Below are positions 2,739 through 22,320 of a stretch of DNA of 32,000 nucleotides, piece by piece. Source of the DNA: Trichlorobacter lovleyi SZ (GTDB lineage: Bacteria; Desulfobacterota; Desulfuromonadia; Geobacterales; Pseudopelobacteraceae); contig NC_010814.1 in NCBI RefSeq assembly GCF_000020385.1, forward strand, positions 1,140,001-1,172,000. Direction: 5' to 3'. The notes under the pieces are model-generated. The model searched no databases, had not been told where the DNA came from, and saw only the letters and a list, made by a program, of their open reading frames with translations. Position 1 is the stretch's first letter; each line of letters begins with the position of its first letter. The position numbers and the translations under genes are program-made.

Positions 2739-5447
2739 CTATTCTTGTTTCGGTGGCACCGGTGCGAACCAGCCGATCACCAGCAGCAACAGTCCTACGG
2801 CAACAAATGATACGATTCTGGCTATGGTGCCGTGACCTGCAAGATCTATCATAAACAGCTTGGCAACCACAACCCCTAGTAGCGTTGCCCCGCAGAGCCA
2901 GATCAGGCGGTTGCTGTGCCGGACCGCATACAGGGTGGCAAGCAGCGCCAACAGGCTCCAGAAGATTGAGAAGGATGCCTGGGCCAAGGGTGAGTGCAGC
3001 ATGCCATGGGCTGTGAACGGTATCTCGCCCCAGTAATGCAGGCTGCGGGCCAGGATGCCGTTCAGCCAGGCAAAGGAAACAGCGCTGAAGACGGCAGTGA
3101 TCGAAAGCTGCAGTTCACGCAGCAGCTCCCGGAATTCATCCATGGTATACAGGCTGCGGAGCCAGATCAGCGGCACGGCAATGGCAGCCAGGATGGTCAG
3201 ATCAAACTGGTTCAGCAGTGGCAGCCAGGGCAGCGGGCCACTGTCGCCAACGCAGGTCAAGGAACTGACCAGGACCCAGCCCAGAGACCAGACCGCAAGG
3301 GGCAGGGCGATGATCCCCTGATAGGTAATCTGTTCCTGGCGGAACGGCCAGATGCTGGTTCGGTTACCGATCACCAGCAGCCCCAGCAGACTGACCGGCA
3401 TCAGCACCTGGCTGATCTCCTGCCAGCTACCCTGCTGCAGCATGGCAAATGATACCTGCCAGCCAAGCTCAAGGGTGCCCAGCAGTGCCAGTAACCATAC
3501 CAGCAGGGCATGGGGATATGGTTTGAACGTGGCAGGCAACTGCTGGTCGTGGGAGTACAGCAGCCACCAGCTTGTGCTAAAGGCGATCGGCCAGGCAAAC
3601 CAGCCGCCATGGGCCAGGGGATGGGCAGGAAACCAGGCCACTGCGGCTGCGGGCATCAGTAGTAGCAGAAGCAGGCTGGTCCAGCCAAAGTTCTGCCACT
3701 GCAGCTTGCGTGCAGATAACCGGATCAGCAGGGCTGAAAGGGCAGCGAACAACAGGATTGCGCCATACAGGAATTCCTTGTCCACGTTTTGTTCCAGCTC
3801 CCGGATGGCGCCACCGGACCACCAGCAGAGTCCCCAGGCGATCAGCAGATACTCAAACGGTTGCTCCCATTCCTGTATCTGGAGCGGATGGCGCTGCAGC
3901 AGAAAGGCGCTGTACAGGCCGGACAGGCTGATCAGCAGGCAGCCCAGATAGAAGCTGTTTAGCAGCGGCACGTTGCTGGTGGTGTGGGCCATAGCGGAGG
4001 CAAAGGCCAGACCGGACAAAAGCTGCAGCAGATAACCGCTGGCCCGCACCAGTCGGCGTTCTGTCCTGAAACCCAGCCAGACCATGGTTGCCCCTTCCAA
4101 TGCCCAGGCAGCGGAGGTCCAGCGGCCGTCAAAGGCCAGCGGTATGCTCAGGCTCAGTAGTATGCCTGCCAGCGCCAGAAATGATGCAGCCAGCGGGCGC
4201 AGCTGGTGGCCCCGGTTCCAGAGCAGACGGCAGCAGGCCAGGTAGCAGAGTCCGGCAGCCAGGGCGCTCCAGGCCATGCCGTAGCGAAAGTCGCTGACCA
4301 GTGCTGATTGCAGGGCAAAGGCTGCCAGTGGTGTACCGAACACCAGGGTTGCATCGGGCATACCACGTAGATCAGGTGGTTGGCGCAGTGAGAACAGCAC
4401 GCTAACCCCCAGGTAGATCAGGAAGAACAGGATCAGGAACGGCTCCACCGAACTGAAATACGCCGGTCTGTAGTAGTTTGCTCCCCAGATGGCGCTCAGC
4501 AGGAAGGTGGCACTAAAGCCGGTCAGGTTGATGGAGCGCCATGAGCGGAACCAGGCGATGCTGATCACAACAATATTCAGCACCGTGTAATAGCCGAACA
4601 GCACTGACGGGTCTCCGATGCCTACTGAAGCCAGAAACGGTGCAGCAAAACCGCCGATTATGCCGAACAGGGCCATGGTGCGTGATTCCTGCAACAGTGC
4701 CAGTGCAGCACACAGGCCAGAGATTACCACCAGCAGCGCAAAGGAAGGAACCGCAGGGATCAGCCCGTATAGCCGGAATGCGGCGTAACTGACTAGATAG
4801 AGAATGCCGATGCCGCCCCCCTGCAGCGCCAGGGCGTATTCGGCCCGCTTGGTGCGCAGCTTCCAGCCGGTTGCCAGCAAAGCCACGCCTCCGGCAGCAG
4901 CGCTCAGCAGGCGTAGTTCCAGCGGAAACATGCCACGTTGGGCTGCATACTTGACCAGAAAGGCGATGCCACAAAACAGGATCAGCACCCCCAGTTTTAC
5001 CAGCAGGTTCTCACCGTTAAAGATGGCCTTCAGAACGTTTTCCAGTGCCGTTGGTTCGGCTGGTGTTGCCGGTGTTGTGGTGTACTGGAAGGTGTAGCTT
5101 GGCTCGCTTTTGTCAATCCTGTCTGCATTGGGTCGTGTTGGTTGCTTCTGCTGCCAGGCGGGGCGGCTGTGCAGTGGACGGTCCAGCGTGGCAGCGGGGG
5201 GACTGACTACGGGCACCGGCTTGGGTGTCTGATCCGGTTCTGGCTTTGCCAGATCCGGATCATCCCGCAGGTGTGCGGATAACCGTGATCTCAACCAGCT
5301 AAGCTCCTGCTGTTGCTTGTCTTGAGCTGTTTTCAGCAACTGCACGCTGCTGTAAAGCCAGCCGATAATCCCGCCTGAAACTGCGCCGGGGAAATGAAAC
5401 AGCATGCCGCCTGCAATGATACCGATACAGATGAACAAGAGTGTCAT
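2739..5447 (-). CDS. DUF2339-type large polytopic membrane protein (902 aa)
   Basis: N-terminal TM helix, then a coiled/Pro-rich linker (QELSWLRSRL...KPEPDQTPKPVPVV), then about 20 or more hydrophobic helices beginning NLLVKLGVLILFCGIAFLVKYAAQRG. This is the architecture I recall for DUF2339. The start ATG lies 3 nt after the stop of the upstream small gene. Confidence 0.8.
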   Translation of the reverse strand: MTLLFICIGIIAGGMLFHFPGAVSGGIIGWLYSSVQLLKTAQDKQQQELSWLRSRLSAHLRDDPDLAKPEPDQTPKPVPVVSPPAATLDRPLHSRPAWQQKQPTRPNADRIDKSEPSYTFQYTTTPATPAEPTALENVLKAIFNGENLLVKLGVLILFCGIAFLVKYAAQRGMFPLELRLLSAAAGGVALLATGWKLRTKRAEYALALQGGGIGILYLVSYAAFRLYGLIPAVPSFALLVVISGLCAALALLQESRTMALFGIIGGFAAPFLASVGIGDPSVLFGYYTVLNIVVISIAWFRSWRSINLTGFSATFLLSAIWGANYYRPAYFSSVEPFLILFFLIYLGVSVLFSLRQPPDLRGMPDATLVFGTPLAAFALQSALVSDFRYGMAWSALAAGLCYLACCRLLWNRGHQLRPLAASFLALAGILLSLSIPLAFDGRWTSAAWALEGATMVWLGFRTERRLVRASGYLLQLLSGLAFASAMAHTTSNVPLLNSFYLGCLLISLSGLYSAFLLQRHPLQIQEWEQPFEYLLIAWGLCWWSGGAIRELEQNVDKEFLYGAILLFAALSALLIRLSARKLQWQNFGWTSLLLLLLMPAAAVAWFPAHPLAHGGWFAWPIAFSTSWWLLYSHDQQLPATFKPYPHALLVWLLALLGTLELGWQVSFAMLQQGSWQEISQVLMPVSLLGLLVIGNRTSIWPFRQEQITYQGIIALPLAVWSLGWVLVSSLTCVGDSGPLPWLPLLNQFDLTILAAIAVPLIWLRSLYTMDEFRELLRELQLSITAVFSAVSFAWLNGILARSLHYWGEIPFTAHGMLHSPLAQASFSIFWSLLALLATLYAVRHSNRLIWLCGATLLGVVVAKLFMIDLAGHGTIARIVSFVAVGLLLLVIGWFAPVPPKQE

Positions 5448-5450
5448 GGC

Positions 5451-5651
5451 CTACCTCGTGGAGCTGGCGTTAAAGGTGTTGATCAGGTTGCTGTAACTGC
5501 CGTTAAGGGTTTCATCAGCAGGCTGAGACTGGTCTGAGGTTGCGGCGCGACGATGTTCAATGGTGCGGGTTATCCCGTTTGAAATGACGATGGTCAGTGC
5601 AAAGGCGATAATCGGGACAATGGCAAAGATCCGTTTGTTGATGGTTTTCAT
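5451..5651 (-). CDS. Small single-TM protein (66 aa), leader gene of the DUF2339/YiiX-like operon
   Basis: MKTINKRIFAIVPIIAFALTIVISNGITRTIEHRRAATSDQ... SD GGAGG (5661..5657) lies 5 nt before ATG 5651. The gene is tightly coupled to the next one (TAG GCC ATG). The first 15 nt upstream of its ATG (GGAGGACGCC-ATG) are identical to those of the small gene at 19611-19781. Confidence 0.65.
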   Translation of the reverse strand: MKTINKRIFAIVPIIAFALTIVISNGITRTIEHRRAATSDQSQPADETLNGSYSNLINTFNASSTR

Positions 5652-5700
5652 GGCGTCCTCCCTGCTGGCTGCGTTTGTTGTTGCTTTACTGAAATGAAAT

Positions 5701-5716
5701 ACAGGGAATGTGCCAA
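5701..5716 (-). promoter_or_regulatory. Sigma-54-like promoter with a degenerate -12 element
   Basis: The minus strand reads TTGGCAC-ATTCC-CTGTA, with the -24 TGGCAC at 5715..5710 and CTGT at 5704..5701. It sits about 50 nt upstream of ATG 5651. The -24 element is perfect, but the -12 is GT rather than the usual GC. The layout parallels the better site at 19816-19832, and a sigma-54 activator gene is divergent and adjacent. Confidence 0.4.
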
Positions 5717-5789
5717 GAACCGTGAAAGGTTATTGGTTAATGATTAAAGGCCTTTAGCTGTGTAGTGGTTGTGTGCGGTAGCAAATCTG

Positions 5790-5819
5790 TTGACATTGAT
5801 TGTACTGGCTCTGTACATT
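5790..5819 (+). promoter_or_regulatory. Sigma-70-like promoter for the EBP gene; possible leaderless transcript
   Basis: TTGACA (5790-5795), an 18-nt spacer, then TACATT (5814-5819). ATG 5826 begins 7 nt after the -10 element and has no SD. The spacer and -10 overlap the TGTAC-N6-TGTACAT box (5801-5818). Confidence 0.35.
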
Positions 5820-5825
5820 TCGTGC

Positions 5826-7325
5826 ATGAATAAGCCCCTGACCTTGACAGCTGTTGACCGTGATTTCTTTCGTGCGGTGGCCCTGGCCGCCTTTGCCAAT
5901 CCGTTCAGCCCGGAACGTGAGGCGCTTGATCGCCGGATTGTTGGTGATGACCTGCGCTGTACAAGGGATGAGCTGATTGATCTGGTGGTGCAGCGGGTCA
6001 CGGCCCGGCTTGATGGCTTGCGGCGCAGCGGCAAGGGTGATCCGGTGCTGTACCGGGGCGAGGACCGCAGCCTGCTGCAGACCGCCTTCCAGTTTGATAT
6101 CTACCATCGCTACCGTGCCCCCTTTGATGCTTTTATCCTTGACCAGCAGCGGGCTGGCGACCGGCCGATCAAGGTGCCGTTTGCCGCTGAAGTGCTGGAA
6201 CAACTGGAACGGCTGGGGTACAGTCGGCCTGATTGTCGCCGTTATCTGGAGATCTTCTACCAGATCCGGCGGGCCTTTTATTTCATCGACACCGCCCTGG
6301 TGGGGCTGTCTCCCTCCATGCATACCCTGCGGCTGCAGCTCTGGAACAACATCTTTACCTGTGACATCAACCTGTATGACCAGCGGCTCTGGGACCGGAT
6401 GGAGGATTTTTCCACCCTGCTGCTGGGTGAGACCGGTACCGGCAAGGGGGCCGCCGCCGCTGCCATCGGACGTTCCGGCTTTATCCCGTTTGATGACAAA
6501 ACCGGCTGTTTCAAAGACAGCTTTACCCGTACCTTTATCAGCCGCAACCTGTCCCAGTACCCGGAATCGCTGCTGGAGTCAGAGCTGTTCGGCCACCGTA
6601 AAGGGGCCTTTACCGGCGCCATTGATAACCATGAAGGGGTGTTTACCCGCTGCTCTGCCCACGGCTCTATTTTTCTGGATGAGATCGGCGATGTCTCAAT
6701 ACCGGTGCAGATCAAACTGTTACAGGTGCTGCAGGAACGGACCTTTGCGCCGGTGGGCAGCCATGACCGGCTGCGTTTCAATGGCCGGGTGATCGCTGCC
6801 ACCAACCGCCCGCTGGATGAGCTGCGGCGGGAAGGACAGTTTCGGGACGACTTTTATTACCGGCTCTGTTCAGATCAGATCATTGTGCCGCCGCTTCGGC
6901 AGCGGGTGCAGGAAGAATCCTCCGAGCTACCGGCCCTGGTCAAAAATATCCTGCAGCGGATGCTGGGACATGAATGCAGCACCATGGCAGCCGAGATCAG
7001 CGAGGGCTTACACAGCTCGCTGGGGCCGCACTATGGATGGCCCGGTAATGTTCGAGAACTTGAGCAGGCGGTGCGTAGGATGCTGCTGACCCGGCGTTAT
7101 GAAGGGGATCGTCTGGTTGTGGGGGGCGGAGGTCTGCAGGATGCGCTGGTGGCCGGTGTCAGTCAGGGCAGTCTGGATGCGCGGGAGCTGCTGGCAGGCT
7201 ACTGTGGCTTACTCTATCAGCGGCTGGGCAGTTATGAAGAGGTGGCGCGGCGGACCGGGCTGGATCGTCGTACCGTCAAGAAGTACGTTATGGCTGAGAC
7301 TCAGGAAGAAACAGAGTCCACCTGA
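5826..7325 (+). CDS. Sigma-54-dependent transcriptional activator (bacterial enhancer-binding protein) with an uncharacterised ~200-aa N-terminal domain and no receiver domain
   Basis: AAA+ sigma-54 interaction motifs are present: Walker A GETGTGKG (nt 6427-6450), ESELFGHRKGAFTGA (the GAFTGA loop), FLDEIGD and GNVRELE. The C-terminal HTH reads YEEVARRTGLDRRTVKKYV. I prefer ATG 5826 (MNKPLTLTAV...) to the track's GTG 5769, whose extra 19 aa are hydrophobic filler overlapping the promoter region. Confidence 0.9.
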   Translation: MNKPLTLTAVDRDFFRAVALAAFANPFSPEREALDRRIVGDDLRCTRDELIDLVVQRVTARLDGLRRSGKGDPVLYRGEDRSLLQTAFQFDIYHRYRAPFDAFILDQQRAGDRPIKVPFAAEVLEQLERLGYSRPDCRRYLEIFYQIRRAFYFIDTALVGLSPSMHTLRLQLWNNIFTCDINLYDQRLWDRMEDFSTLLLGETGTGKGAAAAAIGRSGFIPFDDKTGCFKDSFTRTFISRNLSQYPESLLESELFGHRKGAFTGAIDNHEGVFTRCSAHGSIFLDEIGDVSIPVQIKLLQVLQERTFAPVGSHDRLRFNGRVIAATNRPLDELRREGQFRDDFYYRLCSDQIIVPPLRQRVQEESSELPALVKNILQRMLGHECSTMAAEISEGLHSSLGPHYGWPGNVRELEQAVRRMLLTRRYEGDRLVVGGGGLQDALVAGVSQGSLDARELLAGYCGLLYQRLGSYEEVARRTGLDRRTVKKYVMAETQEETEST

Positions 7326-8577: not shown

Positions 8578-8602
8578 GCTTTGGGTCTTCACTTTCTCGT
8601 AA

Positions 8603-8723
8603 GTCAGCTTCAAATCAAGGATGAGATCAAGGCGACGAGGAATTCGGCGACGCAGGCGTACACGCAGTACGTCGAGGAGTCGAAGACGAGTCAACGAGGC
8701 TATCGCCTTGAGTTGAAGTTGAC
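8603..8723. repeat. Intra-operonic imperfect palindromic element (~121 bp)
   Basis: The outer arms GTCAGCTTCAAATCAAGG (8603-8620) and CCTTGAGTTGAAGTTGAC (8706-8723) are complementary at 16 of 18 positions. The interior carries repeated GACGAGG / ACGCAG / CGTCGAGG blocks. It fills the 147-nt gap between the CdsA-like stop and the transglycosylase start. Confidence 0.5.
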
Positions 8724-8724
8724 C

Positions 8725-9660: not shown

Positions 9661-10292
9661 GAGCGTGCCTCCTGAATTCCCCGGCGCACCCGGTTGACGA
9701 TGGTGATCAGTGTCAGCAGGCTGGCGATCAGTATCGCCCAGTTCATGACAATGCCGTGCAGAGCCTGCCTGTTTTCAAAGACCGCCCATGCGGTAAACAG
9801 CCCCAATGCACCAAAGAAGACCGCCCGGTCGCTCTTGCCAAAGGGACCGTCATAGCGCCTGGAAGCGCCAATGCTCTTGCCCTGCAGCCCCACAAACTCG
9901 GTCAGGCAGCAGAGGCCGATCATCAGCACCCAGCCGATACCATGCTCCATCAGATCCAGAAACGGCAGGTAGAGGGCAGCATCGGAAACCACGTCTCCCA
10001 CTTCATTCAGGTAGGCACCGAACAGGCTCTGCTGATTGTGTTCACGGGCCAGCATGCCGTCAATGGCATTCAGCGCCATGCGGATAAACAGGAACAGCCC
10101 CAGAAACAGGAACGGATACGGGTTGGGGCCGTGGGTGGCAAAGGGTTGGTAGATCCAGATACCATAGGCGATGGAGCCCAGCATGGCTGCCAGGGTAACC
10201 ATATTGGCGGTAACGCCGATTCGGGCCAGCAGGTTAACCAGCGGACGGAGCAGGTTCTGGAATTTTGGTTTCAGGTCGTAGACCGAGGGCAT
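9657..10292 (-). CDS. CDP-alcohol phosphatidyltransferase family protein; head-group specificity unknown
   Basis: 211-aa membrane protein carrying NAIDGMLAREHNQQSLFGAYLNEVGDVVSD, which resembles the DG(x)2AR(x)8G(x)3D(x)3D motif but with an Asn where I expect the first of the last two Asp. SD GAAAGGAA precedes the start. Confidence 0.85.
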   Translation of the reverse strand: MPSVYDLKPKFQNLLRPLVNLLARIGVTANMVTLAAMLGSIAYGIWIYQPFATHGPNPYPFLFLGLFLFIRMALNAIDGMLAREHNQQSLFGAYLNEVGDVVSDAALYLPFLDLMEHGIGWVLMIGLCCLTEFVGLQGKSIGASRRYDGPFGKSDRAVFFGALGLFTAWAVFENRQALHGIVMNWAILIASLLTLITIVNRVRRGIQEARS

Positions 10293-10316
10293 GGATTGAT
10301 TCCTTTCAGTACGTCT

Positions 10317-10446
10317 GTTGAAAAACTACTGCGGAGCCCGTCTACTGCGTTGCGCGGTGCTCACTCCTTCGCCTAACTATTAGTTATGTCTCAGTCGCTG
10401 CGCGCCGTGCGCCTTGTAGCCGTGCTTCCTCATAACGTTTTTCAAC
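10317..10446. repeat. 130-bp imperfect palindrome (REP/MITE-like element)
   Basis: Perfect 10-bp termini GTTGAAAAAC (10317-10326) / GTTTTTCAAC (10437-10446) and a perfect centre TAACTA-T-TAGTTA near 10380. The arms are roughly 70-80% complementary by eye, with small indels. Confidence 0.6.
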
Positions 10447-10457
10447 AGTCTGCTTGA

Positions 10458-10552
10458 GGGCACAGAGAGGAACATGACTGTAAAACCAGATGTTTAAAGG
10501 TTTAAAGTCAATTTTATAGCCTTTCTCTGAGACCTCTGTGTGCTCTGTGGCT
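10458..10552. repeat. 'CACAGAG'-type intergenic repeat hairpin
   Basis: CACAGAGAGG (10461-10470) faces CCTCTGTGTG (10533-10542) across an AT-rich ~60-nt loop. The minus strand reads CCACAGAGCACACAGAGGTCTCAGAGAAAGG, a motif style I associate with multicopy Geobacter-type intergenic repeats (from memory). Confidence 0.5.
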
Positions 10553-11540
10553 ATCTGTCTTTTTGGATTTTTAATAACCTTGCCGGGTTGCTGAATACCT
10601 CTTCCGGTACGCCCAGAGCCCGTTTCAGCTCCAGGTCCCGGTCCCACGGGTTTTTAATGGTCATCAACCGCGCCACGGTCCAGGGGGCCAACCGGGTCAG
10701 ATGCCCCAGCGGCGACACCAACGGGGTGTTGGTTAGCGGCATATCAGTGCCGTAATGCAGCCTGCCGTGCAGGTAGTGCTGCTGGATCAGACGATGCAAC
10801 TGGCCGGGCCGGTTGATCTGGGTCAGGGCCGAGATGTCGGCATGCAGGTTTTTGTGCAGGTCGCACAGGCGCAGGAAGCGGCTGAAGTTGTGCTCACCCT
10901 CGTTGCTGCCATTGGCAGCGGCATGGGCGGCAATCACCGTCACCCCCTGTTCCAGTGCCAGGCGCAGTCGATGCGGGTCTCCCAGCTCATTTCTGGCACA
11001 GGTAAAGGATGCCTCATCACCAGTGTGGGTTAGCAGCGGCAGGCCATGCTGCTGCATCCGTTGATAGAACGGCACCAGCCGTTTATCAGCCAGATCAATA
11101 TGCTGGATCGAGGGGAGCCATTTCATCAGCACGGCCCCGGCCTCAACCGCCTTGTCCAGCAGTTCCAGGGCATCCCTGCGGTACGGGTTGATGCTGGCCC
11201 CAAAGCGAAGGTTGGGATGCTGCTTCACCGCCTCTGCCAGAAAGTCATTGGGGATGTACATTTCTGTACAGCTTTGATCCAGCTTACCCTGGCTGTCCAA
11301 AGCCCCATCCATGGCCAGCACCACGGCCATGTCTACCTTACCTGATGCGGTCAGGGAGGCTGACAAACGTTCCAGCACCAGCTTGTCACCATGGTGCAGC
11401 AGTTCATGCTCCTGCACCCCAAAGGAGTTCAGGTAGACCCGATACTTCCAGCTCTTGCGCAGGTCAGGGGAGATAAAACAGCCGGAATTGCCGGAACCGA
11501 TCCCGGCGGTGTGGCAGTGGATGTCAATGATCGGGTGCAT
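10551..11540 (-). CDS. Metal-dependent amidohydrolase-fold (TIM-barrel) hydrolase
   Basis: The N-terminal MHPIIDIHCHTAG is the HxH metal-binding signature. Later His/Asp blocks are HTGDEAS, VIAAHAA and HYGTDMP. 329 aa; SD AGGAGG lies upstream. Confidence 0.8.
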   Translation of the reverse strand: MHPIIDIHCHTAGIGSGNSGCFISPDLRKSWKYRVYLNSFGVQEHELLHHGDKLVLERLSASLTASGKVDMAVVLAMDGALDSQGKLDQSCTEMYIPNDFLAEAVKQHPNLRFGASINPYRRDALELLDKAVEAGAVLMKWLPSIQHIDLADKRLVPFYQRMQQHGLPLLTHTGDEASFTCARNELGDPHRLRLALEQGVTVIAAHAAANGSNEGEHNFSRFLRLCDLHKNLHADISALTQINRPGQLHRLIQQHYLHGRLHYGTDMPLTNTPLVSPLGHLTRLAPWTVARLMTIKNPWDRDLELKRALGVPEEVFSNPARLLKIQKDR

Positions 11541-13757: not shown

Positions 13758-14717
13758 TTATTTGATAAAAATAAAGTTGCGATGCCATTCTAAGTATTTT
13801 TGATGAAGAAAGTGTAAGTTGCTTATTTGTATATATTTATTTATTCCAAGGAGTTCGGCGTCATGTGATAATTTGTTGGATATTAGTATGTTACCGTTTT
13901 TGTCAAAGCTGATATATCCTTTGTCAAAAGCTTTGTCATAGACTGGTGATAAAGCAAGGCCATTAAAAACATCAATTCTTTCCGAATTATCGGAGTCTTT
14001 CCATGGTTTAATGTGTCCTGCTGTTACAAACAAGCTTGAACCAGTGACTGCACATTTGTTGTTCCAATAGGATAGAATGAGTCTCCTAAATTTGTTCTGT
14101 CCTACTCGGATATCGAGCATCTGCTTTTTTGAAGTATTATCCAAATGAGGGTTGTTTAGTGAACCGAGGAAAAAGAACACATCCGCTTCATCCTTAAGAT
14201 CTGAGATGTATTCTAGAATGGAATTTAACTCTTCTATATGATCTGATAGTTTTATTCTATAGGTGTCATCTTGGGTTGTGGGAAGTAGGGACTTTGCATA
14301 ATCACGTCTGAATGTAACAGCCCGGAATAAAGCCTGTTGTTCTCCTAGTTGTCCAACAGAATAACTCTTTTGGCGGTTTTGCCCGAGGCTGTTTTTATAC
14401 CCGGCGCGCCAAGTTATTTCAGGTGACTTCCTGCTGTCCCGTTTCGATATTGAACGACACACTCCTATGATTCCAGACGTGTTGTTAGGACTAAGTTTTA
14501 GGTCAATTTGGATTAGGCGCTTGCTTGTAGCGTTGTGTCTATTGTCATTGCTCTTGTCAAAGACGCCAAGCGATGAGGCTGCCTGAAAAAATTCATTTCG
14601 GTATTTAATTGCGGCATTATACGCCCCATCAGAGCCACCAAACTTACTGTCACTAAAAGTTTTTGTCTCAAAGAAGCCAAGCCGTTCACAAGCAAATTGC
14701 CAGGCTTTATAATTTTT
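13758..14717 (-). pseudogene. AP2-like/HNH (HNH_2-type) nuclease gene, 3' 319 codons, interrupted by an IS
   Basis: AT-rich gene. The HNH block is FRRLILSYWNNKCAVTGSSLFVTAGHIKPWKDSDNSERIDVFNGLALSPVYDKAFDKGYISF. There are two AP2-like DNA-binding repeats (..KAWQFACERLGFFETKTFSDSKFGGSDGAYNAAIKYRNEF.. and SGIIGVCRSISKR...ITWRAGYKNSLGQNRQKSYSVGQLGEQQALFRAVTFRRDY). The track's 370-aa ORF (to 14870) takes its first 51 codons from IS sequence. Confidence 0.8.
14710..14717. repeat. Target-site duplication, left copy (TAATTTTT)
   Basis: Identical 8-mer TAATTTTT immediately outside both IS ends (14710-14717 and 16120-16127). Confidence 0.85.
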
Positions 14718-16119
14718 GGTTCTTCCGCAGAATTTATGGGTAACTGACCTGCCGAAGATGGTCTGAGCAGCTACCTGGTGAACGAAATAGAGCATCCCGC
14801 CTACAAATCTGTCATTGTGTGTTTCGACCAAGAAACCCAATACAGACAAGGAGAGCGGGATGCAGCTCAAGTCTATACTGAATTTCGTTCAACCGCATCA
14901 AGGTTTTGTGTATGGCGCTGTCCACCAGCGAAACAAGGGACAGCGCACGGTCCTTGACATTGAGATCCGCCCCCGCAAGAACAGGCAGCCTGTCTGTTCC
15001 AGATGCGGCAAACCTGGTCCCGGCTATGACACCTTGCCTGTGCGCCGGTTTGAGTTCGTGCCGCTATGGGGCATTGCCGTGTTCTTCCTCTACGCCATGC
15101 GCCGGGTCAGTTGCCCATCCTGCGGTGTGAAGGTGGAACAAGTCCCCTGGGCCACCGGCAAGAACCACCTGACCACCACCTATGCCTGGTTCCTGGCCCG
15201 CTGGGCCAGGCGGTTGTCGTGGAAGGAAGTGGGGCAAGTGTTTCAGACCAGTTGGGACAACGTCTTCCGCTCGGTCAAAATGGCCGTTGCCTGGGGACTG
15301 GCCCACCGCGACCTCGACACCATAACCGCCATCGGCATCGACGAGATTGCCTGGAAAAAGGGGCACAAGTACCTGACCCTGGTTTACCAGATCGATGCCG
15401 GATGCAAACGCCTGCTGTGGGTCGGCAAGGAGCGGACCCAGAAAACGTTGCGGCAGTTCTTCAAGGAGTTTGGCAAAGAGCGAACAGCACACCTTCGGTT
15501 CATCTGCAGCGACATGTGGAAGCCATACCTGCGGATCGTCGCCGAGGTTGCAGGTCAAGCCATGCATATCCTTGACCGGTTCCATGTCATGACCCACTTC
15601 GGCAAAGCTGTCGACAAGGTCCGGGCAACGGAAGCCAGAGAACTGAAAGCCAAGGGCCAGGAACCGGTGCTGACCGGTAGCCGCTGGTGCCTGCTCAAAC
15701 GGCCTGAACACCTGACGGAGAAGCAGAGCATCAAGCTGAATGAACTGCTGGCCATTAACTTGAAAACCGTCCGGGCCTATCTCCTCAAAGAGGAGTTCCA
15801 GTTCTTCTGGCGCTATGCCACTGCGGGCTGGGCTGCCAGATTTCTGGATGCTTGGTGCAAAAGAACCATGAGGTCACGCATCATCCCGATGAAGAAGATT
15901 GCCAAGATGCTGCGCTCGCATCGGGAGCTGTTACTCAACTGGTTTCGGACCAAAGGGCAGGTTGCCTTGGGGGCCGTAGAAGGATTCAACAACAAGGCTA
16001 AAGTGACCTCACGTAAAGCATACGGTTTCAGAAACTTTGAAGTGATGAAAATCGCCTTGTATCATACACTTGGCAACCTGCCAGAACCTGAGGCTACCCA
16101 CAGATTCTGCTGAAGAGCC
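14718..16119 (+). mobile_element. Complete ISL3-family insertion sequence (1402 bp)
   Basis: The left end is GGTTCTTCCGCAGAATTTATGGGTA. The reverse complement of the right end is GGCTCTTCAGCAGAATCTGTGGGTA, matching at 21 of 25 positions. The element carries a single transposase ORF and has an 8-bp direct repeat, as expected for ISL3. Its GC content is close to the host's, unlike the AT-rich gene it interrupts. Confidence 0.9.
14860..16113 (+). CDS. ISL3-family transposase (417 aa)
   Basis: N-terminal zinc finger (CSRCGKPGPGYD...CPSCGV), then a DDE-type body (GIDEIAWKKGHKYLTLVYQID...ICSDMWKPYL...DRFHV...). SD AAGGAGAG precedes ATG 14860; the track's 14815 start adds 15 unlikely residues. The stop lies inside the right IR. 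Confidence 0.9.
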   Translation: MQLKSILNFVQPHQGFVYGAVHQRNKGQRTVLDIEIRPRKNRQPVCSRCGKPGPGYDTLPVRRFEFVPLWGIAVFFLYAMRRVSCPSCGVKVEQVPWATGKNHLTTTYAWFLARWARRLSWKEVGQVFQTSWDNVFRSVKMAVAWGLAHRDLDTITAIGIDEIAWKKGHKYLTLVYQIDAGCKRLLWVGKERTQKTLRQFFKEFGKERTAHLRFICSDMWKPYLRIVAEVAGQAMHILDRFHVMTHFGKAVDKVRATEARELKAKGQEPVLTGSRWCLLKRPEHLTEKQSIKLNELLAINLKTVRAYLLKEEFQFFWRYATAGWAARFLDAWCKRTMRSRIIPMKKIAKMLRSHRELLLNWFRTKGQVALGAVEGFNNKAKVTSRKAYGFRNFEVMKIALYHTLGNLPEPEATHRFC

Positions 16120-16203: not shown

Positions 16204-19200
16204 TTACGCTATCGCCTCCGCTAGCTTCTTCAGCCCCTTCAGATCCAGCTTGCCGCTACCCAGTAGCGGTATCGCTTCAGCTGCCACCAACAACGACGGT
16301 TTCCAAAGGTTGGGCAGTTCTGCCTGTTCAATGGCCTGTTTAACCTTGGCCTCATCAAGTTGGGTCTGATCAAAGACCACGGCGATCCGCTCCCCCTTTT
16401 TCTCATCCGGCACTGCCGTGACAGCCAGCAGCAGGTCAGTGCTGGCCAGGGCTGCCAGCAGCCGTTCCTCCACGGCACCGTGGGGGATCATCTCGCCGCC
16501 GATCTTGCTGAAGCGGGCCAGACGATCGGTGATCACCACAAAGCCCTGCTCATTGATGTAGCCGATATCGCCGGTGTTGTACCAGCCATTGCGGATCACC
16601 TTGGCGGTCTCGTCCGGTTTGCCCAGGTAGCCGGTCATCAGGTTGGGGCCAGATACCTCGATCAGGCCCGGCTGGCCATCAGCCAGCAGTGTGCCGCTGT
16701 CCGGGTCGCTGATCCGTACCGCCACGCCAGGGATCGGCCTGCCCACGCTGCCTGACAGTTGCCCTTTCTGGCGGATGCCGCCGATCTCCACATCCGGGAT
16801 GTTGAGGGAGATAACCGGCGAGAGTTCAGTGGCGCCGTAGCCTTCCAGCGGGCGCAGCTTGAACTTCTCTTCAAAGGCATTGGCCAGTTCGGTCTTGAGC
16901 TTTTCAGCACCGGTGATCACCAGCCGCAGGGATCTGAAATCCTCTGGAGATGCCTTGCGCAGATAGGCTGACAGGAAAGTGGGGGTGGCAATCAGGATGG
17001 TGGCCTTTTCATTGCGCACCAGTTTGACCACCTGGGTCGCCTCCAGCGGGTTGCTGTGGCAGGCCGATGAGAAACCGGACAAGAGCGGCAGCCAGAGCGT
17101 GCCGGTAAAGCCCAGGGAGTGGAACAACGGCAGCACCGCCGCCACCCGGTCGTTCTGGTCCGGCTGGAACACGGCCCGCAGCGCTTCAATATTGGAGAGG
17201 ATGTTGTGGTGCGACAGCATGACCCCTTTGGGGGTTCCGGTGCTGCCGGAGGAAAAGATGATGGTGGCGGTGTCATCCGGGGCCGGGTTGTCGGCCACCA
17301 GGGTTGCCAGCGGTGCCAGTCTGGCAGCAGCCAGCGCCTTCAGTTTTTCCAGTGATCCCAGCCCTTGCATAACCTCTTCCAGCAGGATGATCCGTTCCGG
17401 CATCGGCAGGTCAGGCAGTTTCTCCAAGACCTTTTTAGAGGTGACCACGCAGCTGATCTCTGCCTGTTCCAGGGATGAGGCAAAGGCATCCCGTGAAGCG
17501 GTGTAGTTCAGGTTAACCGGCACCTTAGCCAGCAGGGTCAGGGCGATGTTGGCGGTAAAGCCGGCCACGGAAGGGGGTAGCAGTATCCCCACCTGTTTGC
17601 CGGACAGCAGCGGCTGTAGCCGGTTTTTGACCAGCAGGCTGCCGGTCAGCAACTGGCCGTAGGTCAGGCTTTTCCCGGTGGTGTCGTTGACCGCCGGGTG
17701 AGACCAGTTGCTGCGGGCAGTGCGGACAAAGGCATCAGCCAACGGCAGGCGCTGGTCTTTGCGGGCCTCAAAGTAGCGCACTGACAGCTCCATTACGGCA
17801 GTGCGGGCCTGGGCTGCCTGATCAGCAGCCAGCGGCGTGCCGAACAGGATATGCATGGGATAACGGTTCAGGTAGATATGTCGGTTGCGGGCATAGCTGA
17901 AGATGTTGCCCCAGGCGCCGCCGATGTAGGCCGGAATGATCGGTACACCGGTTGCCTGGGCGATCTTGGCAAAGCCGGGCCGGAAGGCGTTCAGGCTGCC
18001 GTGGCGGGTGATCTCCCCCTCGGCAAAGATGCAGACCAGATAGCCTTCATCCAGCACCTGTTTGGTGGCGCGCAGGAACTCCTTGAACCCGGCAATGCCA
18101 TCTTTGGCAGAGACTGGAATTACCCCCATCAGTTTGAAGAGTGGGTTCAGGGCCGGGGTCTCGTAGATGCTGCGGTCCATCACAAAGCGGATGCGGCGGG
18201 TCTGGGTGGCCACCAGCAGCAGGGCATCAATCCAGGAGACATGGTTGGCCACCAGCAGGGCCGGGCCATCCAGCGGTACATTGTCCCTGCCATCCACCCG
18301 GATCTTGTACAGCAGGTGCATCACCACCAGGGCCACAAAGCGCAGCAGGAAATCCGGCAGGTAACGGATGGTGACCAGGGTCAGCAGCAGGGTCATGACC
18401 CCCATCACACTGAACCCCTGGGCAGCGGTCATCTGCAGCGGCCCGCTGAACAGAAAGGTCAGGGCAGAAGCGATCAGGATGCCGACCCAGTTGATAAAGC
18501 TGGAAGCGGCCAGTACCTCACCCCTGATCTCGGCCTCGGCCCGCATCTGAATAAAGGTCTGCAGCGGCAGGGAGAACAGACCGGCGCTGATGCCGAACAA
18601 CAGGATGATGGCCAGTACGGTGGGCAGATGGGCAGGCGCATTGTGCAGCAGTACCGGCGCAATGGTCAGGCCGATGGCCCCCAGCGGCACGATGCCGAAC
18701 TCCACATCCTTGCCGGACAGCTTGGCTGCCAGCAATGAGCCGCCGGCAATGCCGAAGGCAGAAGCCAGAAAGAGGTAGCCGCTTTTGGCTTCATCAAGCC
18801 CCAGTTGCTGGATGCCGTAGCCGATCAGGTTAAGCTGGGTAAAGGCCCCCACCAGCATGAACCAGGCCAGGCCGGTAATGGCCAGCATCAGCCAGTGGTC
18901 ATGCTTGATATGCTGCAGGGTACGCAGGATTTCGGCCGGGAAGAGACGGATCGGGCGATTAGGCGCGACAGCCGCAACCTTTGGCAGGCGCAGGGCAGAG
19001 ATCAGGCCGATGATGGCAACCGCCAGGCAGAAGCAGGCAGCCAGCCAGAAACGGCCGCCCACTGCCTGGGTCAGGGCCGAGGCCAGGGTGGTGCCGAAGA
19101 TGATTGCCAGAAAGGTGAAGGATTCGATCAGGCCATTGGCCCGGGATAGCTCATCGCGGGGGGCCAGTTCAGGGATGATGCCATATTTGGCCGGGGCAAA

Positions 19201-19548
19201 AAAGGCGCTGTGGGTGGCCATCAAAAACAGTACCCCGTACAACCCCCATTCAAGCCTCAGGGCAAAGGTTAGTACAGCCAGGGCGGTAACGATCACCTCC
19301 AGCAGCTTGACCGCTACGCTGACCCGTGCCTTGCTGAAACGGTCGGACAGGCAGCCGGCCGGAGCTGAAAAGAGCAGAAACGGTAGCACAAAGGCCACGC
19401 CGGCACAGGCGGTGATGATGCCGGCCCTGTTGGCCCCCTGATGGTGGATCAGGAAGAAGATGATCAGCAGCTTCAGGATGTTGTCATTCATCGCCCCCAG
19501 AAACTGGGTCAGGTTCAGGGCCGGCAGGCCGGCAGGCAGTTTGGACAT
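16204..19548 (-). CDS. aas: Triple-domain LplT(MFS)-PlsC acyltransferase-acyl-ACP synthetase fusion (lysophospholipid transporter / 2-acyl-GPE acyltransferase / Aas type)
   Basis: 1114 aa. The N-terminal ~400 aa form a 12-TM MFS domain. The central part has the HX4D acyltransferase block (LVANHVSWIDALLL ... FAEGEITRHG). The C-terminal part is an AMP-binding domain (IIFSSGSTGTPKGVMLSHHN ... GWYNTGDIG ... GKLDLKGLKKLA). Confidence 0.9.
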   Translation of the reverse strand: MSKLPAGLPALNLTQFLGAMNDNILKLLIIFFLIHHQGANRAGIITACAGVAFVLPFLLFSAPAGCLSDRFSKARVSVAVKLLEVIVTALAVLTFALRLEWGLYGVLFLMATHSAFFAPAKYGIIPELAPRDELSRANGLIESFTFLAIIFGTTLASALTQAVGGRFWLAACFCLAVAIIGLISALRLPKVAAVAPNRPIRLFPAEILRTLQHIKHDHWLMLAITGLAWFMLVGAFTQLNLIGYGIQQLGLDEAKSGYLFLASAFGIAGGSLLAAKLSGKDVEFGIVPLGAIGLTIAPVLLHNAPAHLPTVLAIILLFGISAGLFSLPLQTFIQMRAEAEIRGEVLAASSFINWVGILIASALTFLFSGPLQMTAAQGFSVMGVMTLLLTLVTIRYLPDFLLRFVALVVMHLLYKIRVDGRDNVPLDGPALLVANHVSWIDALLLVATQTRRIRFVMDRSIYETPALNPLFKLMGVIPVSAKDGIAGFKEFLRATKQVLDEGYLVCIFAEGEITRHGSLNAFRPGFAKIAQATGVPIIPAYIGGAWGNIFSYARNRHIYLNRYPMHILFGTPLAADQAAQARTAVMELSVRYFEARKDQRLPLADAFVRTARSNWSHPAVNDTTGKSLTYGQLLTGSLLVKNRLQPLLSGKQVGILLPPSVAGFTANIALTLLAKVPVNLNYTASRDAFASSLEQAEISCVVTSKKVLEKLPDLPMPERIILLEEVMQGLGSLEKLKALAAARLAPLATLVADNPAPDDTATIIFSSGSTGTPKGVMLSHHNILSNIEALRAVFQPDQNDRVAAVLPLFHSLGFTGTLWLPLLSGFSSACHSNPLEATQVVKLVRNEKATILIATPTFLSAYLRKASPEDFRSLRLVITGAEKLKTELANAFEEKFKLRPLEGYGATELSPVISLNIPDVEIGGIRQKGQLSGSVGRPIPGVAVRISDPDSGTLLADGQPGLIEVSGPNLMTGYLGKPDETAKVIRNGWYNTGDIGYINEQGFVVITDRLARFSKIGGEMIPHGAVEERLLAALASTDLLLAVTAVPDEKKGERIAVVFDQTQLDEAKVKQAIEQAELPNLWKPSLLVAAEAIPLLGSGKLDLKGLKKLAEAIA

Positions 19549-19610
19549 GGTCGTTCCCCGTGGTGAAGTTGAAACAATCTATATACCAGATTAGTTGCAA
19601 ATAGCGAATG

Positions 19611-19781
19611 CTAGCCCCGCATCAGGGGGCCCTGGGCCAGCCCCTTCAACGCCCCGGAGGCGATTCTCTTTACAGTGCGCCTGCTGTGGTGCCTTTTAAT
19701 GGTCTCGGAGAGGATGGCGATGGTCATCAGCAGGATCAGTGGGGTTGTTGCTACCAGTACTCGTAAGGTCAGTGTTTGCAT
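19611..19781 (-). CDS. Small single-TM protein (56 aa), leader gene upstream of aas
   Basis: MQTLTLRVLVATTPLILLMTIAILSETIKRHHSRRTVKRIASGALKGLAQGPLMRG. SD AAGGAGG lies 5 nt before ATG 19781. I reject the track's upstream start at 19850 because it would lie upstream of the sigma-54 promoter. It shares its layout (N-terminal TM, then a basic T-I-E/K-H/R-H/R-R segment) and its SD context with the 5451-5651 gene. Confidence 0.6.
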   Translation of the reverse strand: MQTLTLRVLVATTPLILLMTIAILSETIKRHHSRRTVKRIASGALKGLAQGPLMRG

Positions 19782-19815
19782 GGCGTCCTCCTTAGCTGTT
19801 CTTGCTGTTGTGATT

Positions 19816-19832
19816 AGCAGGGAGGGTGCCAA
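19816..19832 (-). promoter_or_regulatory. Sigma-54 (-24/-12) promoter
   Basis: The minus strand reads TTGGCAC-CCTCC-CTGCT, with TGGCAC at 19831..19826 and CTGCT at 19820..19816. The GG and GC dinucleotides have the correct spacing. The site lies about 35 nt upstream of ATG 19781. Confidence 0.6.
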
Positions 19833-19967
19833 GTCGTGCATCTGTTGCAACTGGCTTTATTTGTTGTTCTATTTTCATGCGTTGCTGAAATGTTGTGATG
19901 GTAGTTGTGGTACGCGCTGTACATAATATGTCGTTGGCTTGTTCAATCTATGTCGTGTATGGCGTGC

Positions 19968-19996
19968 TTGCCAATGTTCTGCAGTGGCGCTATGCT
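19968..19996 (+). promoter_or_regulatory. Sigma-70-like promoter for the 20004 gene; possible leaderless transcript
   Basis: TTGCCA (19968-19973), a 17-nt spacer, TATGCT (19991-19996), then 7 nt to ATG 20004, which has no SD. Confidence 0.3.
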
Positions 19997-20003
19997 ATGC
20001 GGC

Positions 20004-20462
20004 ATGGAAACCAAGGGACCGGCAGCATTCAAATACAAGCAGGAAGGCGGCAGCAACGTGCTGGTATGGGTGGTGTTGATCACCAGCCTGATTGTCTCGT
20101 TCATTGCCACTGCCAACCTTGGTCCCTGGTGGCTGCTGGGGTTGCTGCTGCCGCTGGGGATTGCCATCTACCTGATTCGCGAAGGGATGCGTAAAACCCT
20201 GATCATCGCCCCGCGCTACCTGATTGTGGGGGATGGGATCATCTACTACAGTACCGTTGCCAAGGCCCAGTTGGATCGCCGGAAACAGGTCCTGACCCTG
20301 GTTTCAGAACGGGGCAAGCGGCTGGCCATCGAGGCGGAAAAGTTTCCCACCAACGCCCGCAAGGATTTCAAGATCAAGGCCAACAAGACCGCCAAATTTG
20401 ACAAGGTTTGCGAAAAGGTCCTGGCACGGCTTTCAGGAGTAACCCCTGATATCATCGGCTGA
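20004..20462 (+). CDS. Two-TM membrane protein with a ~90-aa cytoplasmic beta-rich (possibly bacterial PH-like) C-terminal domain
   Basis: METKGPAAFKYKQEGGSNVLVWVVLITSLIVSFIATANLGPWWLLGLLLPLGIAIYLIREG..., then RYLIVGDGIIYYSTVAKAQLDRRKQVLTLVSERGKRLAIEAEKF. The start is uncertain: 20004 is preferred, 19992 is possible, and the track's 19905 start gives a Cys/Met-rich extension over the divergent promoter region. Confidence 0.65.
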   Translation: METKGPAAFKYKQEGGSNVLVWVVLITSLIVSFIATANLGPWWLLGLLLPLGIAIYLIREGMRKTLIIAPRYLIVGDGIIYYSTVAKAQLDRRKQVLTLVSERGKRLAIEAEKFPTNARKDFKIKANKTAKFDKVCEKVLARLSGVTPDIIG

Positions 20463-20496: not shown

Positions 20497-22320
20497 GTGC
20501 ACTTGCTGTATGTGCCCACCCTCTGCTGCAACCTTTCCTGCCGTTATTGTTATCTTGGCAGCCAGACCGATCCAACCACCCTGAAGCTGGATGCAGGCAG
20601 GGCAGTGGCTACCTTGCAGCAGGCACTGCAGAGGCTTCTGGATACCGGTGTTCTGCCGTTTAATGTCTCACTGCATGGTGGTGAGGTGACCACCCTGCCT
20701 GTAAAGGTACTGGATCAGCTGTTCAGCACCATCAATCGCCACTATCTGGATCACTTTGATCAACTGAACGCCCTGGGGTATCGCAAGTCAGCCCCCCATC
20801 TCAAGACTAACCTGTTTAACTTCCATAAGCTGTATGACCTGTTTGACCAGCACCGGGTCTCCATCAGCGCCAGCATTGATCTGCCGTTGTCCCTGCATGC
20901 CAAATACCGCACTGATCACCGGGGGCGATCCTGGTTGAACCGCACCATTGAAAACCTGCGCCTGCTGGCCCGTTATCCCCACAACAAAAAGATCTCTGCT
21001 ACGCTCTACCATGAGCATCTGCAGGATATCCCGGCCTTGATCGATGCTATCTGGACCATTCACCGTGAGCTGGGCTTTGACATGAATAATTTCAATATCA
21101 TGTTCGGGTTCGGGTCAGAGCTGAACTGCCGGAAATTCAGTGGGCAGCCTGAACTTGGGCTACAGCAGGCCTCTGAAGCTGAACAGCTGGCCCTGTACCA
21201 TGCCCTGCAGGATGCCTTTAGTGGTACGGAACTTGAGGAAGGGTTGCGGCGGAACTGGTTTGATGAGTTCAAGCCCAGCTACTGCACCAATGCCTTTAAC
21301 TGTGGTGAGCGGTTTTATCTGCTGCAGTCCGATGGTACGGTCTGGTCCTGTGTGCGGGGGCAGGGGGTGGAGCAACTGCAGTACGGCAACATCTTTACTG
21401 ACCGGGTGCAGGATATCCTGGCTGAAGGCAGCCGCCGGGTCCGGCTGCTGCACCAGCAACAGGGGCTTGATCCTGACTGCCGGGCCTGCGAGTATCTGCA
21501 GATCTGCCATACCGGCTGCCCGGCAGTCAAGCTGCAGAACCGCTCCGGCAAATCCTACACCTGTGCCCTGCAAAAGGCGATCTATCGGGATAATCCTGCC
21601 TCGTACCCGCCGCTCGGGCCGCTGGAGCAAGCGGCAGCAGCGCGGGAGTATCTGCTGGGGATGCACCCGGCCCTGCTGCAGGATGCGTTGACGCAGGAGC
21701 AGCCGAAGAACCCGGCGGTGTTGATCCCGGTAGAGCTGTACGAAGAATGGAACAGCCTGCAGGCCTTGATTGCGGCTGATCCGTTGCTGCTGCAGCTGTA
21801 CAGCCCGGATGCTATTGTGCTGGAGCTGAATGGCGAGCTGCTGCCACTGCAATCCCAGATTCTTGCTCCTCAGCGCAGTCTCTACAGTGTTGGGGCGGAT
21901 GATCGCCTGGTACTGCATGTCCGGCGCTCTCTGTTTGAGGCCAACTGCACGGAGCTGATCCGCAATACCCTGTATATCCAGCTCTTGCGGGATACCACGG
22001 TGGTCTATGGTGATGAACAGCGCAGCAAGCAGGAACATCTGATCACCCACCAGATCTTTCACAACCTGCTGCAGCCTGATCTGCTGCTGGGGGACGGGTG
22101 GCTGACCGCAGACCTGGCAGGGTTGCTGCAGTTAACCAGTCGGTATTTCATCAAAAATGTGCTTAATAATTTGTTCGTGACCACCGGCCAGCTTCGGGAG
22201 TATCATTATCAGAAGCAGAAAAACAACGCCTTCTATCATATTCAGGCCATCAATCTGCCGTTTCAAAACTTTGAATTTTACTGGGACAGCGAGACAGAAT
22301 ATGTCATCAAAAGATCTTGA
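20497..22320 (+). CDS. Radical SAM / SPASM-domain enzyme with an additional ~215-aa C-terminal region of unknown function
   Basis: CX3CX2C sits at residues 11-18 (CNLSCRYC, nt 20527-20550), followed by HGGEVT. The SPASM cysteines are CTNAFNCGERFYLLQSDGTVWSC ... CRACEYLQICHTGC (nt 21478-21519, CX2CX5CX3C) ... YTC. It starts at GTG 20497 with no clear SD, 34 nt after the previous stop. Confidence 0.88.
   Translation: MHLLYVPTLCCNLSCRYCYLGSQTDPTTLKLDAGRAVATLQQALQRLLDTGVLPFNVSLHGGEVTTLPVKVLDQLFSTINRHYLDHFDQLNALGYRKSAPHLKTNLFNFHKLYDLFDQHRVSISASIDLPLSLHAKYRTDHRGRSWLNRTIENLRLLARYPHNKKISATLYHEHLQDIPALIDAIWTIHRELGFDMNNFNIMFGFGSELNCRKFSGQPELGLQQASEAEQLALYHALQDAFSGTELEEGLRRNWFDEFKPSYCTNAFNCGERFYLLQSDGTVWSCVRGQGVEQLQYGNIFTDRVQDILAEGSRRVRLLHQQQGLDPDCRACEYLQICHTGCPAVKLQNRSGKSYTCALQKAIYRDNPASYPPLGPLEQAAAAREYLLGMHPALLQDALTQEQPKNPAVLIPVELYEEWNSLQALIAADPLLLQLYSPDAIVLELNGELLPLQSQILAPQRSLYSVGADDRLVLHVRRSLFEANCTELIRNTLYIQLLRDTTVVYGDEQRSKQEHLITHQIFHNLLQPDLLLGDGWLTADLAGLLQLTSRYFIKNVLNNLFVTTGQLREYHYQKQKNNAFYHIQAINLPFQNFEFYWDSETEYVIKRS

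Follow-up and report, generated by a model that had tools for sequence, protein, structure and literature searches.

A candidate sigma-54 promoter with paired activator dyads upstream of a small membrane protein gene and the LplT-PlsC-Aas fusion of Trichlorobacter lovleyi SZ

The stretch of DNA analyzed here (the window) comprises 32,000 nt of Trichlorobacter lovleyi SZ, positions 1,140,001 to 1,172,000 of the forward strand of NC_010814.1, and all coordinates below are counted from its first letter. Its minus strand codes for a fused LplT-PlsC-Aas protein of 1114 aa (gene aas, 16204..19548), which is preceded by a small open reading frame (sORF1) and, further upstream, by a candidate sigma-54 promoter with a pair of putative activator sites. 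The same window carries, on the plus strand, a gene for a sigma-54 enhancer-binding protein (EBP), which faces a second control region of the same layout.

The promoter element, TTGGCACCCTCCCTGCT, is located at 19816..19832 (-) and reads TTGGCAC-CCTCC-CTGCT, with the GG at 19830-19829 and the GC at 19818-19817, that is, with the canonical GG-N10-GC spacing of TGGCAC-N5-TTGCW. It differs from the 16-mer sigma-54 consensus at one position, being the sole match of this quality within the window, and agrees at 12 of 17 positions with the RpoN consensus of Geobacter sulfurreducens, TTGGCACGGTTTTTGCT, an organism in which RpoN is essential (PMC2725144). The start codon of sORF1 (ATG 19781) lies 34 nt away, and the coordinates, the GG/GC spacing and the distance of about 35 nt given for this motif in an earlier note on the same DNA all hold. 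From the usual distance between the -12 GC and +1, transcription would start at 19805 (+/- 2 nt, minus strand). We found no sigma-70-like hexamer pair at the position of the element, and Rfam gave no match in the region.

Conservation was assessed in 16 non-identical, diverged Trichlorobacter loci with sORF1, aligned without gaps and anchored on the -24/-12 motif; the nearest aas orthologues belong to Trichlorobacter and to "Geobacter" genomes of the lovleyi clade, with identities of 83-91%. TTGGCA and TGCT(A) are invariant in all 16 loci, and TTGGCA[CT]-N6-TGCT sits 30-46 nt 5' of the sORF1 ATG in every one of them. The flanks are variable, with poor conservation both in the 18 nt directly 5' of the motif and in most of the 5' untranslated region (UTR). 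Invariant TTGGCA and TGCT within variable flanks are the pattern expected of sigma-54 contact positions, and the contact positions are conserved in the orthologous regulatory regions. The earlier note had made its claim depend on conservation of the motif in front of orthologous aas genes; it is kept in 16/16 sORF1 loci, 15 of which retain the pairing of sORF1 with aas.

Upstream of the promoter element there are two dyads of the form T[GA]CA-N5-TGT[AC], which can also be written as ACA-N5-TG(T/C)AC. Dyad A (CGACATAGATTGAAC, 19941..19955, minus strand; consensus ATACATAAATTGCAC) and dyad B (CGACATATTATGTAC, 19919..19933, minus strand) are 22 bp apart and begin, in nearly all 16 loci, 123/122 and 101/100 nt 5' of the first T of TTGGCA, which places both (-123, -101) within the roughly 80-150 bp from the promoter that are usual for an upstream activator sequence (UAS). 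A regular expression recovered ACA-N5-TG(T/C)AC at -101/-100 in 12 of the loci. With a two-dyad position weight matrix (PWM), trained exclusively on EBP-proximal blocks from non-Trichlorobacter genomes and run over the 300 nt upstream of the sORF1 promoters, 15 of the 16 top matches fell at -123/-128, dyad A of the window forming part of its best match. The dyads are retained despite a differing upstream neighbor in several loci (L001/L093, L003, L004, L008, and L090-L092), so we can assume that they belong to the sORF1 promoter and not to the divergent gene. Paired dyads occur at only two places in the 32 kb, compared to 0.15 expected, namely, here and in the EBP-side control region. The activator site proposed previously, GGTAC-GCGC-TGTACAT (GGTACGCGCTGTACAT, 19909-19924, plus strand), survives in part: its TGTACAT (19918-19924) falls in the conserved dyad B, and its GGTAC-GCGC portion is not conserved. 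As an activator site it was rejected, as it overlaps half of one dyad only, the actual sites being dyads A and B.

A third conserved block, AAATAAAGCCAGTTG (19848..19862, minus strand; consensus AAATCAAGCCAGTTA), forms a conservation peak at -30..-16 of the anchored alignment, and we also found it in outgroup modules (see below) as AATACAAGCAAGTTAC. A canonical site for integration host factor (IHF) between the UAS and the promoter was considered and discarded, as AAATCAAGCCAGTTA fits the IHF consensus WATCARNNNNTTR (PMC7962754) only with a spacer of 5 nt instead of 4. With this imperfect match, the block may act as an aid to DNA bending. Another candidate, TTGGCAAGC near 19974, was tried as a second -24 element and turned out to be the -35 of the divergent gene on the plus strand, found only where that divergent gene occurs.

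The first gene behind the promoter is sORF1, with a strong Shine-Dalgarno sequence (SD), AAGGAGGA (19793..19786), the ATG at 19781 and a stop codon that ends at 19611 (19611..19793 in all, minus strand). The frame and the 56-aa single-transmembrane (TM) product are as previously described: the hydrophobic helix is N-terminal (residues 6-24) and is followed by a basic tail (net charge, +8). The reading frame is intact in 16/16 loci, and the nucleotide differences are distributed over the three codon positions as 1410/854/2295, mostly in the third. The family has 34 members in the databases, with lengths of 38-76 aa (most of them 55-58) and all unnamed or annotated as "hypothetical", and there was no match in Pfam or NCBIfam, which agrees with the earlier note, whose reader recognized no family for this leader protein. 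Outgroup homologues match the sORF1 hidden Markov model (HMM) with an E value of about 1e-4. sORF1 is a real, fast-evolving small membrane protein, and the predicted sigma-54 promoter is tied first to it. The control regions of sORF1 and of sORF2, the small protein of the second control region, share local DNA similarity. Homology between the two proteins themselves was rejected as too weak (BLASTP E = 0.013, hhalign probability of 9%, HMM cross-hit E = 52), so they are kept as separate families.

Behind sORF1, at a spacing of 62 nt from its stop to the ATG at 19548, comes aas, exactly as the earlier coordinates had it. The protein contains the Pfam domains MFS_1, Acyltransferase and AMP-binding, reaches 1484 bits against the NCBIfam model NF006386 ("acyl-[ACP]--phospholipid O-acyltransferase"; cut-off, 1221 bits), and carries an HX4D motif (HVSWID, residue 436) as well as SSGSTGTPK, the adenylation motif, at residue 766. 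By its domains it is the fused form of LplT-Aas, for which lysophospholipid flipping and re-acylation can be predicted. In the spacer between sORF1 and aas we detected no terminator-like site and no significant RNA structure, and in L003 the stop codon of sORF1 and the start codon of aas overlap; read-through into aas is thus likely.

The EBP gene (5826..7325, plus strand) has all the components of a sigma-54 activator: a Sigma54_activat domain (PF00158 at 3e-43) followed by AAA_lid_14, GAFTGA at residue 260, the Walker A motif GETGTGK at residue 201, and a C-terminal helix-turn-helix that was seen as a weak Sigma70_r4_2 match and by eye. Its N-terminal domain (residues 1-190) had no Pfam match. 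AlphaFold2 (43 sequences) predicted it as all-helical, with a mean pLDDT of 85.5 and values of >90 over most of residues 1-170, and a Foldseek search of this model against the PDB found no relative (best E = 0.5, TM-score about 0.2). Homologues of the domain, with generic names only, are present in Geobacteraceae, Planctomycetes, Kiritimatiellae, Pontiella and Desulfococcaceae.

The two-dyad UAS is also present at the 5' end of the EBP gene. This second control region (5700..5826, minus strand) has the same layout, with dyads TGCACGAAATGTA (5826..5814) and TACAATCAATGTC (5804..5792), again 22 bp apart, followed by TTGGCACATTCCCTGTA (5716..5700), and it is conserved in Trichlorobacter orthologues. 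It continues, divergent from the EBP gene, with the SD GGGAGGACGCC, an ATG, sORF2 (5451..5651, minus strand; 66 aa, single TM) and the gene for a DUF2339 membrane protein of 902 aa (2739..5447, minus strand). From the shared UAS layout and the conserved gene linkage described next, EBP 5826..7325 would be the most likely activator of the sORF1 promoter.

The linkage of EBP and aas extends to other lineages. Other Geobacteraceae/Desulfuromonadales, with aas 58-61% identical, provided 12 genome loci in which an orthologue of the EBP (63-68% identity) is divergent from an amidohydrolase-aas pair, with DUF2339 or a C92 amidase downstream in some of them, and 13 metagenome loci found via the EBP have the same EBP/amidohydrolase-aas arrangement. 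All the intergenic regions between EBP and amidohydrolase contain two dyads (e.g., ATGCACAAAATGTACATCACGCCGGCATCCAGTGTCAAT), with YTGGCAYGTTCCCTG[A/T]A about 85-110 nt beyond. In another set of loci the EBP is directly divergent from aas (L010, L155, L033 [Kiritimatiellales], L034 [Chitinispirillaceae] and L036 [Pontiella]), and a sigma-54-like motif is found about 80 nt 5' of the aas ATG, or about 120 nt in L155. Taken together, these arrangements would imply sigma-54/EBP control of the LplT-PlsC-Aas fusion across several phyla. The outgroup Geobacteraceae L013-L015 carry, 3' of aas, a complete module of dyads, AATACAAGCAAGTTAC, the sigma-54 motif CTGGCACGTTCCCTGTA, an SD, homologues of sORF1 and of sORF2, and DUF2339, which argues that the UAS/sigma-54/sORF1 module is old. 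In Trichlorobacter this old module would have come to stand before aas, and in the relatives an EBP-proximal sigma-54-like promoter would serve aas. In their gene order and control sequences, EBP, amidohydrolase, Aas, sORF1, sORF2, DUF2339 and the C92 amidase behave as one conserved, predicted sigma-54 regulon of membrane-lipid genes.

A recurrent TGGCACGCCTACCGCA, 190-360 nt 5' of aas in distant Geobacteraceae (L011, L014, L022, L024, L035 and L064), was discarded as a promoter, as it lies inside the amidohydrolase coding sequence, where it encodes W-H-A-Y-R, and is a trap for scans with sigma-54 motifs. Separately, distant members of the EBP family (51-63% identity; L111, L114, L124, L151, L156 and L169) lie divergent from sigma-54-like motifs, behind which other small proteins of 45-132 aa, TM or secreted, are encoded, and tiny membrane proteins at the head of operons may be a trait of this EBP family.

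We consider it probable (about 80%) that 19832..19816 (-) is a functional RpoN promoter for sORF1 that would read on into aas, with the EBP encoded at 5826..7325 as its most likely activator and with a basal sigma-70-type promoter most likely serving aas as well. The EBP, which faces the sister module of sigma-54-like promoter, sORF2 and DUF2339, would bind the two dyads 22 bp apart, centered about 95 and 117 bp 5' of the -24 element, possibly assisted through DNA bending by the A/T-rich block at 19862..19848, and would spend ATP for promoter opening. Transcription would then proceed from near 19805, and the transcript would carry sORF1 and continue unterminated into the LplT-PlsC-Aas gene. 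A candidate basal sigma-70-type promoter at 19580..19608 (-) would also serve aas, the sigma-54 promoter supplying an inducible extra. The earlier note had the same core, in which the small ORF and then aas are driven from a sigma-54 promoter that has an activator site further upstream, and this reading is supported by the footprinting of the 16 loci, the lack of a terminator and the linkage of EBP and aas elsewhere.

Several observations weigh against this reading, and we take them together with the alternatives that they favor. The promoter could depend on sigma-54 and be activated by an EBP other than 5826..7325, the dyads being shared through a common family of sites or through another regulator; we regard this as possible, if unlikely. 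The EBP gene is 12.5 kb away from the sORF1 promoter, Geobacteraceae encode many EBPs, and the genome of T. lovleyi SZ probably codes for many others. In addition, the sORF1 sites score modestly on the PWM, and T. lovleyi SZ has a degenerate dyad A, with TGAAC instead of TGCAC. What speaks for EBP 5826..7325 is that half-sites and 22-bp spacing are identical at both sites of the window, with distances from the dyads to the -24 element that differ by about one helical turn, that paired dyads are so rare in the window, and that the linkage of EBP and aas is deep.

It is improbable, in our view, that the sigma-54 promoter is real and serves sORF1 alone, with aas transcribed essentially from a sigma-70-type promoter of its own in the spacer, which would leave no sigma-54 control of reacylation here. 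The candidate for such a promoter is TTCGCT-N17-TGgTATATA (19580..19608, minus strand). TTCGCW-N17/18-TGnTATAnn is conserved in the spacer between sORF1 and aas, which means that aas could do without the sigma-54 promoter. Where the sORF1 module is missing, the TTCGCW/TCTGGTATA element is also found directly 5' of stand-alone lplT. Moreover, the outgroup module sits downstream of aas and not upstream, and in L092 (640-3307, a metagenome contig) the genes behind the sigma-54 promoter and sORF1 code for a Hydrolase_4-Methyltransf_20 fusion (584 aa) and a PAP2-like membrane protein, in place of aas. Against these points, neither a terminator nor a stable structure separates sORF1 from aas, the gene overlap in L003 leaves the spacer promoter no room, and the pairing of both genes is nearly constant in Trichlorobacter. 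Elsewhere, aas stands directly behind EBP-linked sigma-54-like promoters, so that membership in the same regulon would be expected here too, and the sigma-70 element is a consensus match whose -10 often lacks the final T. We can assume from the conserved spacer element that aas probably keeps its own proximal basal promoter of the sigma-70 type, and that in T. lovleyi SZ the predicted sigma-54 control of aas is likely additive or inducible rather than exclusive. In the same spacer, CTGGTATATAGATTGTT at 19589 was examined as a sigma-54 site and rejected: it fits a very loose pattern only, its GG/GC spacing is lost in orthologues, and an extended -10 (TGnTATATA) is the better interpretation.

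As for the motif itself, the lone -24/-12 match in 32 kb is not significant and lies within chance, with TGGCAC-N6-TGC expected 0.8 times per shuffled window and at least one match in 52 of 100 shuffles, and matches with up to two mismatches to the 16-mer consensus are not enriched in the window (22 found compared to 29.6 expected). What raises the motif above chance is its conservation across the 16 orthologous loci together with that of the upstream dyads. The rpoN gene is not within the window. Next to the EBP, the sister promoters have no canonical GC at -12: the second control region of the window has TGTA, and those in the EBP-amidohydrolase intergenic regions of other genomes have TGA or TGT, with a few CTGCG (L009-L015, L022-L024, L030, L035, L064, L100-L110, L126, L131 and L136). 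This trait is conserved, and the EBP-proximal promoters may form a class with a non-canonical -12, TGC being near-universal otherwise. It is very improbable that the likeness to a -24/-12 element is coincidental and that the block, whose C-rich spacer (CCTCCC) is conserved too and is not required for sigma-54 recognition, is bound by another factor or forms part of a sigma-70 promoter or of a 5' UTR element, given that the invariant positions are exactly the sigma-54 contacts at the right spacing and at the right distance from the paired dyads and the start codon, that no sigma-70-like pair or Rfam match was found there, and that the element is accompanied, across phyla, by the gene for an EBP with GAFTGA.

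Compared to known systems, the element is of an ordinary type, a putative sigma-54 promoter in a family rich in sigma-54. It shares with the RpoN promoters of G. sulfurreducens (PMC2725144) the family of organisms, the -24 GG, the -12 GC and, as predicted, the dependence on an EBP, and differs from them in its C-rich spacer, which is T-rich there, and in the TGTA or TGA at the -12 of the EBP-side sister promoters. The UAS resembles those of NtrC and NifA in having two dyads about two helical turns apart, some 100-140 bp 5' of the start, with a possible bending site in between. However, the half-sites here are T[GA]CA-N5-TGT[AC], compared to TGCACC-N5-GGTGCA for NtrC and TGT-N10-ACA for NifA, and the intervening block matches the IHF consensus only with the longer spacer mentioned above.

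Some bacteria carry lplT and aas fused as one ORF, and these fused homologues are uncharacterized (PMC11416262). Unlike the lplT-aas operon of Escherichia coli described in the same work, the T. lovleyi gene combines an MFS domain, a PlsC-type acyltransferase and an acyl-ACP synthetase in one protein and is located behind a small TM ORF. It also has a candidate sigma-54 promoter with a dedicated EBP, whereas none of the papers searched reports sigma-54 control of the E. coli operon. With the phage shock protein (Psp) response, the locus would have in common a sigma-54/EBP circuit for the integrity of the inner membrane that includes very small single-TM proteins. It differs from Psp in that there is no homology to PspA, PspB or PspC, in that the EBP has a helical N-terminal domain of about 190 residues, which PspF lacks, and in that the predicted targets are genes of lipid metabolism. 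We may speculate that sORF1 and sORF2 have a signaling role. A more specific version, doubtful as it is, would make the N-terminal domain of the EBP a sensor of membrane-lipid damage (e.g., of the accumulation of lysophospholipids or free acyl chains) that switches on recycling and the membrane proteins that go with it in several phyla, with sORF1 and sORF2, at the head of its operons, as membrane-embedded partners relaying the signal or feeding it back to the EBP. If true, this would be a Psp-like circuit built from unrelated parts.

Lysophospholipids damage membranes and arise from phospholipases, lipoprotein acylation and outer-membrane remodeling. The bacterial regulation of their recycling by LplT/Aas is not addressed in the literature that we found. 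No target of the acyltransferase, amidohydrolase, phospholipid or MFS type is named in the study of RpoN in G. sulfurreducens or in its supplementary tables (PMC2725144). Sigma-54 has been proposed as a controller of the bacterial exterior, acting on the building blocks of envelope and membrane, phospholipid precursors included, in a work that contains no mention of lysophospholipid, acyltransferase, Aas/LplT or an EBP-aas regulon (Francke et al. 2011, PMC3162934). Searches for sigma-54, RpoN or EBP combined with lysophospholipid, LplT, Aas or acyl-ACP synthetase returned nothing relevant, which is consistent with the earlier statement that sigma-54 control of lysophospholipid reacylation is undescribed. 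The regulon as a whole, with an EBP that has a new sensor domain, the lysophospholipid recycling genes, two small membrane proteins and DUF2339, present across phyla, appears to be undescribed as well. The locus provides a concrete candidate circuit, consisting of a sigma-54 promoter, a pair of activator sites and a candidate activator with a sensor domain of no known fold. The conserved regulon to which it would belong recurs in Geobacteraceae, Kiritimatiellota and one Chitinispirillaceae genome. It gives two small-protein families and DUF2339 their first functional context, and suggests that the repair of membrane lipids has a control circuit so far undescribed.

The other genes of the window deserve a short description. 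Between the EBP gene and aas, on the strand of the latter, there is a group of lipid and envelope genes (7301-11540, minus strand) that codes for an amidohydrolase, a CDP-alcohol phosphatidyltransferase, CdsA, an SLT transglycosylase and a PlsC-type acyltransferase, and in which no sigma-54-like motif of its own was found. The series of genes behind aas in L002 and L003 codes for a 408-aa zinc-ribbon protein, the amidohydrolase, the CDP-alcohol transferase and CdsA. In the window this series is interrupted between aas and the 408-aa zinc-ribbon gene by an ISL3-family transposase (14815-16113, plus strand) and an HNH-domain gene (13758-14870, minus strand). As aas and the zinc-ribbon gene are adjacent in L003, the transposase and HNH genes look like an insertion, which may have cut an ancestral long operon.

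Stand-alone LplT proteins of 402-416 aa, which share about 70% identity with the N-terminal third of the fusion, are found in related Geobacter (L060, L066, L067, L070 and L071-L075). L067 and L070 keep the promoter-like TCTGGTATA element and the synteny with a 152-aa membrane-protein gene and have no sORF1 and no sigma-54 motif. This 152-aa gene is the divergent neighbor of sORF1 in the window (ATG 20004, plus strand). Within 19968-20006 (+), a TTGCCA-17-TATGCT pair ends about 8 nt before the start codon, which suggests a leaderless mRNA or one with a very short leader. It is followed by a 607-aa radical SAM/SPASM gene (20497-22320).

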